Shown one piece after another: positions 40,417-40,908 of a stretch of DNA of 64,000 bases. The notes beneath the pieces are model-generated. The model saw nothing but the letters and a program-made list of their open reading frames with translations, was not told the origin of the DNA and searched no databases. A program made the translations under genes and the position numbers. Numbering within the stretch: position 1 is the stretch's first letter; every line of letters starts with the position of its first letter. The DNA comes from Escherichia phage vB_EcoM_Lh1B: sequence record OK428535.1; one strand, 5' to 3'.

Positions 40417-40908
40417 TTATTTATTTTCTTCTAACGGAACAATCGTAATCGGAGTAGGAACTTCACCGATAAACCCGCTGCTGCAGCGAAAGAATGTCAT
40501 CCCTTTACCTTCGCCGGTATACGGGTTCACATCCGAAAAAGAATAAGTGGGGCTATCGTTTACGGTTTTATTAATACGGTAATAACGCTCACCTGTGGTG
40601 GTGTTAACATTCCCGTCGATTTTGCCGATCACGTCTTTAAACATCATCGGTGACTCTAGTTTGCCACCGTCCCACGCTGCTACCCAGTTTGCACCCACAT
40701 CCATTACTGTTACTGACCGCGGCATCATTTGTAGGTTGTCCAGTACCGGACGGTAGTCTACAAACTTCTCCTGCGTCCCTGTGCATGTATAAATCACCAA
40801 GTCGTGATTCTTTACTGGTGTGGCGCTAAATTGTCCTATGTTGCTTGGCGACTGAACACAACCGGCCAACAGGTTTATAATCGCGAATACGATAAATAGA
40901 CGTTTCAT
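40417..40908 (-). CDS. Lipoprotein; candidate superinfection-exclusion or receptor-blocking factor
   Basis: N-terminus MKRLFIVFAIINLLAGCVQS has a signal peptide plus LAGC lipobox. Isolated gene on the opposite strand with its own 5' region (40909-41032). Confidence 0.7.
   Translation of the reverse strand: MKRLFIVFAIINLLAGCVQSPSNIGQFSATPVKNHDLVIYTCTGTQEKFVDYRPVLDNLQMMPRSVTVMDVGANWVAAWDGGKLESPMMFKDVIGKIDGNVNTTTGERYYRINKTVNDSPTYSFSDVNPYTGEGKGMTFFRCSSGFIGEVPTPITIVPLEENK

Follow-up and report, generated by a model that had tools for sequence, protein, structure and literature searches.

The window (the whole 64,000-nucleotide stretch of Escherichia phage vB_EcoM_Lh1B, record OK428535.1) carries a minus-strand gene for a 163-residue prolipoprotein, the ortholog of gp159 of phage SPN3US and referred to below by that name. 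The gene stands alone on its strand; it lies back to back with a short DUF7941 protein gene (the ortholog of SPN3US gp160) and converges on an M15-like gene, with which it has a terminator in common. Coordinates of these features, of the elements within the gene and of one protein gene from related loci are listed in Table 1.

Table 1. Coordinates of the gp159 gene, its control elements and associated features (window positions unless a locus is named)
Feature	Position	Strand	Remarks
Prolipoprotein CDS, 163 aa	40417..40908	-	Ortholog of SPN3US gp159; member of PHROG 9559
Shine-Dalgarno-like AAGGA	40915..40919	-	6 nt 5' of the ATG
Signal peptide, residues 1-16 (MKRLFIVFAIINLLAG)	40861..40908	-	From sequence; weak Pfam LPAM_1 match, residues 1-17
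Lipobox L14-A15-G16-C17	40858-40869	-	Kept in all homologs
Cys17 codon, predicted lipidated N-terminus of the mature protein	40858..40860	-	Invariant in 22 sequences
Predicted beta-barrel core, residues 27-144	40477..40830	-	AlphaFold model m9e1989170d31; conservation
Cys42 codon	40783-40785	-	Invariant; on the long second strand of the model
Cys142 codon	40483-40485	-	Invariant; on the last strand of the model
Extended C-terminal tail, residues 145-163	40420..40476	-	Pro/Thr-rich; low confidence in the model
Bidirectional intrinsic terminator	40384..40414	.	Common to the convergent M15-like gene 39776..40291 (+); 13-bp stem
Upstream block GGGCTTAATATGACAG	40958..40973	-	Candidate phiKZ-type (TATG) promoter and transcription start
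TATGCACC	41000..41007	+	Candidate promoter of the gp160-like gene; conserved
Short DUF7941 protein gene, 182 aa	41033..41581	+	Divergent partner; ortholog of SPN3US gp160
Second bidirectional terminator	41621..41644	.	Closes the divergent pair against the minus-strand operon ending at 41662
Protein of about 188 aa, two transmembrane segments: Goslar gp085 (locus L007)	12980-13549
Same protein, locus L005	8644-9210
Same protein, locus L006	10368-10934

The lipoprotein gene and its transcription unit

The translation begins MKRLFIVFAIINLLAGC and has the arrangement expected of a bacterial prolipoprotein: an n-region (KR) is followed by a hydrophobic core and an L-A-G-C lipobox containing Cys17. 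When a PROSITE-style lipobox rule was applied to the ATG-started open reading frames (ORFs) of at least 40 aa in the whole window (n = 638), three matched; the other two are spurious 44-aa ORFs. Cys17 is invariant in 22 homologs with 25-90% identity, so the lipobox is not a chance match, and the signal peptide and LAGC lipobox described in the first-pass annotation are borne out. In Enterobacterales, Asp at position +2 causes a lipoprotein to be retained in the inner membrane during Lol sorting. The +2 residue is Val in the window protein and V, A, T or S across the homologs, never Asp; the +2 rule therefore predicts outer-membrane sorting for the whole family.

In tblastn searches of phage genomes, the protein shares 99.4% amino acid identity with the SPFM Salmonella jumbo phages and 95.7% with SPN3US gp159 (SPN3US_0159 / ACQ60_gp107, annotated 'hypothetical protein'). 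The window is therefore derived from a Seoulvirus, a nucleus-forming chimallivirus of roughly 240 kb. The dN/dS ratio of the gene between the window and SPN3US is 0.17, and judged by this value it is under purifying selection; it is real, resident and selected. Recent horizontal acquisition as a 'moron' is ruled out by a GC content and codon usage typical of the window.

The gene is preceded by 51 consecutive plus-strand genes (160..40291) and followed by one plus-strand gene, after which a block of minus-strand genes extends over 41662..61485. The earlier description of a single gene on the opposite strand is therefore accurate. The terminator on its 3' side is strong in both directions (-29.6 and -28.1 kcal/mol; z -6.2 and -8.3). 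The gene had also been described as bracketed by bidirectional terminators; this holds on the 3' side and fails on the 5' side, which is occupied by a promoter region. Since the second terminator lies beyond the gp160-like gene, the two terminators bracket the divergent pair, not the lipoprotein gene alone. A hairpin resembling a terminator is also found 5' of the lipoprotein gene in L005 and L006, two Goslar-like loci from metagenomes.

The divergent start codons are 124 bp apart. Two elements in this spacer are conserved across five genera and the remainder is variable. The element on the lipoprotein strand, GG(C/T)TT(A)TATATGAC, is present in SPN3US, SPAsTU, Asesino, Wellington and pEa_SNUABM_43; in the window its TATG lies at 40962-40965, 54-57 nt 5' of the start codon. 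The other element lies in front of the gp160-like gene, and its TATG G is on the opposite strand, 41 bp from that of the lipoprotein gene. A TATG is found 37-64 nt 5' of the lipoprotein start codon in 9/10 loci, including Goslar-like ones in which the lipoprotein gene is co-directional with fibre genes.

In phiKZ, late promoters recognised by the non-virion RNA polymerase consist of TATG, with transcription starting from the G; early promoters are AT-rich motifs some 10 nt long. Across the window, TATG shows no enrichment in front of genes (15 observed against 12.4 +/- 3.3 expected), so assignment of the gp159 promoter to this class rests on cross-genus conservation and its timing is uncertain. 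By weak inference from phiKZ, the gene may be expressed at middle or late times. Its arrangement is that of an autonomous, conserved stand-alone transcription unit.

A 17-nt AT-rich motif, TTTCAGATAKATRTTAY, occurs elsewhere on the plus strand of the window at 872-888, 7719-7735, 16118-16134 and 20662-20678, with zero mismatches to a degenerate pattern. Four sites compare with 0.05 expected, and each follows a terminator and lies upstream of small genes; the motif probably serves as the consensus of early promoters, read by the virion RNA polymerase, in this phage. None of the four sites is near the lipoprotein gene.

The minus-strand operon at 41662-47034, which faces the divergent pair across the second terminator, opens with tandem ORFs at 46642..47034 and 46227..46631. 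In each product a leader (about 45 aa) is joined to a repeat core rich in Cys, Gly and Ser (e.g. CSGGCSGTCTGNCSGGCGKSCSANC), and in codon usage the two ORFs are extreme outliers. Next in the operon come a 68-aa ORF, a 295-aa ORF, two radical SAM genes, gp162 and a DUF4376 gene; Erwinia relatives have kept the radical SAM pair. This operon looks like a RiPP-like cluster, with precursor peptides and radical-SAM maturases, in a jumbo phage.

Family, distribution and predicted structure

The protein matches the PHROG 9559 profile over residues 3-163 (E 1.6e-81), as do all 22 aligned homologs. Members of PHROG 9559 include SPN3US gp159, Goslar gp088, Asesino gp174, Wellington gp172 and the Kwan and Huxley proteins annotated 'Lipoprotein'; the lipobox and the Cys pattern are alike in all of them. 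Literature searches found no study of PHROG 9559 or the gp159 family. Neither NCBIfam nor PADLOC has a family for the protein, Pfam gives only the weak LPAM_1 signal-peptide match (at E up to 10) and a PDB sequence search returned noise only. The DUF2846 label carried by one GenBank record (MW384823) is unsupported, with no Pfam DUF2846 match at E up to 10; the lipoprotein of pEa_SNUABM_43 matches no Pfam family at the same threshold.

Homologs are few. A profile search of 1.84 billion representative proteins gave only 16 matches at E <=0.001, and word-indexed searches gave comparably few. In isolate genomes and IMG/VR, every match comes from a jumbo phage infecting Salmonella, E. coli or Erwinia, and the records or contigs concerned are about 180-250 kb long. 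The gene is carried by the SPN3US group, Asesino/phiEaH2, Wellington/Kwan, ChrisDB/Machina and Goslar (gp088). The remaining matches are on short metagenome contigs, and scans of viral contigs added near-identical isolates and nothing else. The gp159 family is tiny and is confined to nucleus-forming jumbo phages of about 240 kb that infect Salmonella, E. coli and Erwinia.

Nine residues are invariant among 22 sequences down to about 25% identity: Cys17, Cys42, Cys142, G72, R108, Y110, S125, G132 and G134. The conserved core motifs are GKIDG, RYYR and GxGxGMTFF. Conservation of the Cys42/Cys142 pair suggests an extracytoplasmic (periplasmic) disulfide. Beyond Cys142, most of the tail (TD....ADP..V.V) does not vary within the Goslar-like clade, and the C-terminal tail is therefore probably functional. 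Compared with SPAsTU, the lipoprotein gene is the most diverged of its neighbourhood (61%, against 69-90% for the others), and it diverges faster than the adjoining enzyme genes. In some SPFM records the lipoprotein is scrambled, with blocks of about 20 aa reversed in order; this looks like a sequence-record artefact.

AlphaFold gave an unusable model with a 12-sequence alignment (pLDDT 47); a usable model was obtained only with 22 sequences (pLDDT 83, pTM 0.71), in which most of residues 30-145 exceed 90. The model (m9e1989170d31) is an all-beta domain of about 10 strands. The mature lipoprotein is predicted to consist of a tether of about 10 residues, a beta-barrel of roughly 10 strands and an extended C-terminal tail. 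In the model, a Cys42-Cys142 disulfide probably locks the barrel.

A Foldseek search of the model against the PDB gave no match with E <=0.001. By fold, the model most resembles Cap15, nitrobindin, YceI, FABP-like proteins, Bacteroides lipid-binding lipoproteins and Neisseria surface lipoprotein barrels; matches in the PDB all fall short of that threshold. Significant matches among viral structures (BFVD) are to members of the family and to a few uncharacterised phage proteins or lipoproteins; those outside the family are from Xanthomonas phage DIBBI, Erwinia phage Joad and Pectobacterium phage CBB. A protein of coliphage EcoN5 has the same predicted barrel fold at low sequence identity, like those of Joad, DIBBI and CBB. 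These models hint that small beta-barrel lipoproteins of phages form a broader structural class.

Neighbouring genes and the virion

The genes on the 3' side of the lipoprotein gene encode gp155 (DUF7941 with a GP38 adhesin-like domain), a lysin with GH108 and PG_binding_3 domains, the products of three tiny ORFs, a DUF1353 protein and the M15-like protein. The gene had been placed between a lysis cassette and fibre genes; a lysin is indeed found on the 3' side, but so is the adhesin-like gp155. The 'fibre-type' label given to the 5' neighbour is not borne out, as its ortholog SPN3US gp160 is a high-copy head-associated virion protein rather than a demonstrated fibre. Translations of several proteins, including gp155 and gp157, contain X residues from 259 N bases, which are clustered in the window. 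Goslar gp087 was considered as a homolog of the DUF1353 protein and ruled out.

Mass spectrometry of the SPN3US virion identified 86 proteins. These include gp155, gp157 and gp160; gp156, gp158 and gp159 are missing from the list. More than 300 copies of gp160 are present per capsid, and it is assigned to the head. The first-pass annotation had stated that its proposal of superinfection exclusion would fall if the lipoprotein were a virion component; the absence of the 96%-identical ortholog gp159 from the 86-protein list indicates that it is not.

In every clade the neighbours of the lipoprotein gene include DUF7941 adhesin-type genes or tail-fibre genes. SPN3US, Wellington, Asesino, a Machina-like phage and SPAsTU have between one and four gp160-like paralogs beside it. 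In Goslar, a P1 gpS-like tail fibre gene and a Caudo_TAP chaperone gene are found upstream and a DUF7941-NCTSP gene downstream; in locus L006 the neighbours are DUF7941-LRR and DUF7941-DUF285 genes.

DUF7941 appears to correspond to the SPN3US 'paralog family B', which comprises the tandem array gp138-gp154 together with gp160 (window ~21644-38131 and 41033-41581, plus strand). It also forms the N-terminal module of adhesin-like proteins (gp155 and relatives), joined to GP38, LRR, DUF285 or NCTSP TIM barrel domains. In SPN3US, DUF7941 proteins were assigned to the head by mass spectrometry of tailless particles; they may be head fibres on a flagellotropic phage.

Three tiny ORFs (window 38833-39117, plus strand) lie between the GH108 lysin and DUF1353 genes; relatives retain them, but SPN3US carries no annotation for them. 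The first has an ATG that overlaps the stop codon of the lysin gene, and it encodes a 33-aa cationic amphipathic peptide, MKQNWFAALMKAIWRALVFAxRRKRNDPPSNSA (cf. Asesino gp172). The second encodes a peptide of about 50 aa (cf. SPAsTU_288) and the third a 30-aa peptide with a C-terminal transmembrane segment (cf. SPAsTU_287). All three are candidate holin, antiholin or disruptin-like lysis accessories.

Goslar-like loci encode, 1-3 genes downstream of the lipoprotein gene (directly after it in L005), a conserved protein of about 188 aa whose C-terminal part holds two transmembrane segments. Coupling of this protein with the lipoprotein was rejected because it is also encoded in PCH45, PhiEaH1 and Moabite, where it lies beside thymidylate kinase; these are chimalliviruses that are not among the lipoprotein matches.

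Possible functions of gp159

As a non-virion lipoprotein predicted to lie in the outer membrane, gp159 could be a lytic-conversion or superinfection-exclusion factor, a functional analogue of T5 Llp and of Cor; the role is tentative and falls somewhat short of probable. It is nevertheless plausible and is the best-supported single hypothesis, on the basis of localisation logic, non-virion status, the autonomous unit and linkage to adhesin genes. The invariant Cys pair, purifying selection, native base composition and codon usage, the confidently modelled barrel, the faster divergence and the T5-like gene layout also fit it. In the proposed mechanism, the prolipoprotein gene would be transcribed alone from the conserved promoter of TATG type, which faces away from that of the gene for an abundant DUF7941 virion protein, and its transcript would end at the strong terminator. 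The product would be exported by Sec and lipidated at Cys17; with no Asp at +2, it would then be passed by Lol to the outer membrane of the host and reside in its inner leaflet. There, facing the periplasm, it would engage a conserved component of the envelope on which adsorption or DNA entry of this phage group depends; binding would exclude superinfecting phage, spare progeny from infected cells and debris, or both. Superinfection-exclusion or progeny-protection factors described for Chimalliviridae were sought and none was found.

Llp of T5 is likewise a non-virion phage lipoprotein with a classical lipobox, encoded by a lone gene with its own promoter. In the T5 record, llp is divergent from the receptor-binding gene oad, with the promoters in a 79-bp spacer; the gp159/gp160 layout is analogous. 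The term 'T5 Llp-type' had been applied to the window gene. Read as homology, it finds no support, as the proteins resemble each other in the signal peptide alone: when the family was compared with T5 Llp by hhalign, 17 signal-peptide columns aligned and nothing else, and the match to PHROG 1119 (Cor) covers residues 2-21 only (E 0.008). Membership in the Llp or Cor families was therefore rejected.

The proteins differ in several other respects. The mature part of gp159 (147 aa) is about 2.4 times larger than that of Llp (62 aa). The predicted beta-barrel of gp159 differs from the Llp fold, and no Llp structure is among the PDB fold matches. T5 llp is an early gene, whereas the motif upstream of gp159 resembles phiKZ late promoters. 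As a rule, Llp-type proteins follow receptor specificity. The gp159 family has a core that is conserved in phages of Salmonella, E. coli and Erwinia alike, which counts against superinfection exclusion, as do the late-type motif and the head assignment of the DUF7941 neighbours. Finally, T5 uses FhuA as its receptor, whereas SPN3US is reported to use the flagellum; an outer-membrane protein for gp159 to mask is therefore not obvious, and this too counts against the role.

Conservation of the core across different hosts also fits a conserved host target. gp159 could condition the infected cell from the periplasm without acting on phage entry, either as a calycin/lipocalin-like ligand-binding lipoprotein or by modulating a stress sensor or an envelope machine (flagellar rings, Tol-Pal, Bam/Lpt and Rcs are examples). 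The best fold matches are ligand-binding or lipoprotein barrels, and the conserved charged and Gly-rich motifs (D70, D98, R108, R111, GxGxG) suggest a defined binding site; even so, such a role is considered rather unlikely. An outer-membrane-anchored barrel might instead bind a lysozyme or peptidase, like MliC, PliC or PhiA, and either block the wall-piercing enzyme of superinfecting phages or restrain the phage's own lysins until lysis. T4 Spackle blocks the cell-wall-piercing enzyme of superinfecting phages by means of a different fold. This is quite improbable for gp159. hhalign on the mature parts of gp159 and MliC/PliC gave a probability of 0.5%, the MliC motifs do not align and the gp159 barrel is larger than those of MliC, PliC and PhiA. 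Homology to MliC/PliC was rejected on this profile-profile comparison; Pfam (PF09864) likewise gave no match at E up to 10.

The predicted outer-membrane location, the proximity of lysin genes and the late-type promoter motif are also what might be expected of an unconventional outer-membrane disruption or lysis-timing factor, akin to an o-spanin, in a group of phages without annotated spanins; a literature search on SPN3US found no report of spanins. Both o-spanins (Rz1 type) and u-spanins (T1 gp11 type) carry an outer-membrane lipoprotein signal, as gp159 does. However, the signal peptide is the only hydrophobic segment of gp159; it has no C-terminal transmembrane segment and is therefore not a u-spanin. 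There is no adjacent i-spanin, since the sole N-terminal-transmembrane protein in the 64-kb window is encoded at 9793..10002, 30 kb away. The modelled folded barrel of about 118 residues is unlike a short Pro-rich o-spanin, the gene is on the opposite strand with a bidirectional terminator between it and the lysin genes, and the three small ORFs after the endolysin gene are better lysis-accessory candidates. Matches to Rz-like spanin PHROGs cover residues 1-23 only; membership in a spanin family was rejected, as these matches are to the signal peptide. A lysis role for gp159 has only a small chance of being right.

A further proposal, that gp159 represents a new structural family of jumbo-phage outer-membrane beta-barrel lipoproteins which carry out lytic conversion in nucleus-forming phages, is possible but doubtful.

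DNA protection has been studied intensively in nucleus-forming jumbo phages, whereas envelope management, secondary infection and lysis have barely been studied. Superinfection, lipoproteins and spanins all go unmentioned in a 2026 review of the biology of jumbo phages. Being conserved, non-virion, linked to adhesin genes and predicted to lie in the outer membrane, gp159 offers a concrete handle on this gap. A role in lysin inhibition or lysis, if true, would still supply a missing piece of this group's lysis pathway. The host partner of gp159 could be a surface receptor or an entry factor used after flagellar attachment, and bears on host range and on the design of phage cocktails against Salmonella and Erwinia. 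If gp159 does carry out lytic conversion, it could be the first such factor for Chimalliviridae, and its target could reveal a secondary cell-surface receptor of these phages.
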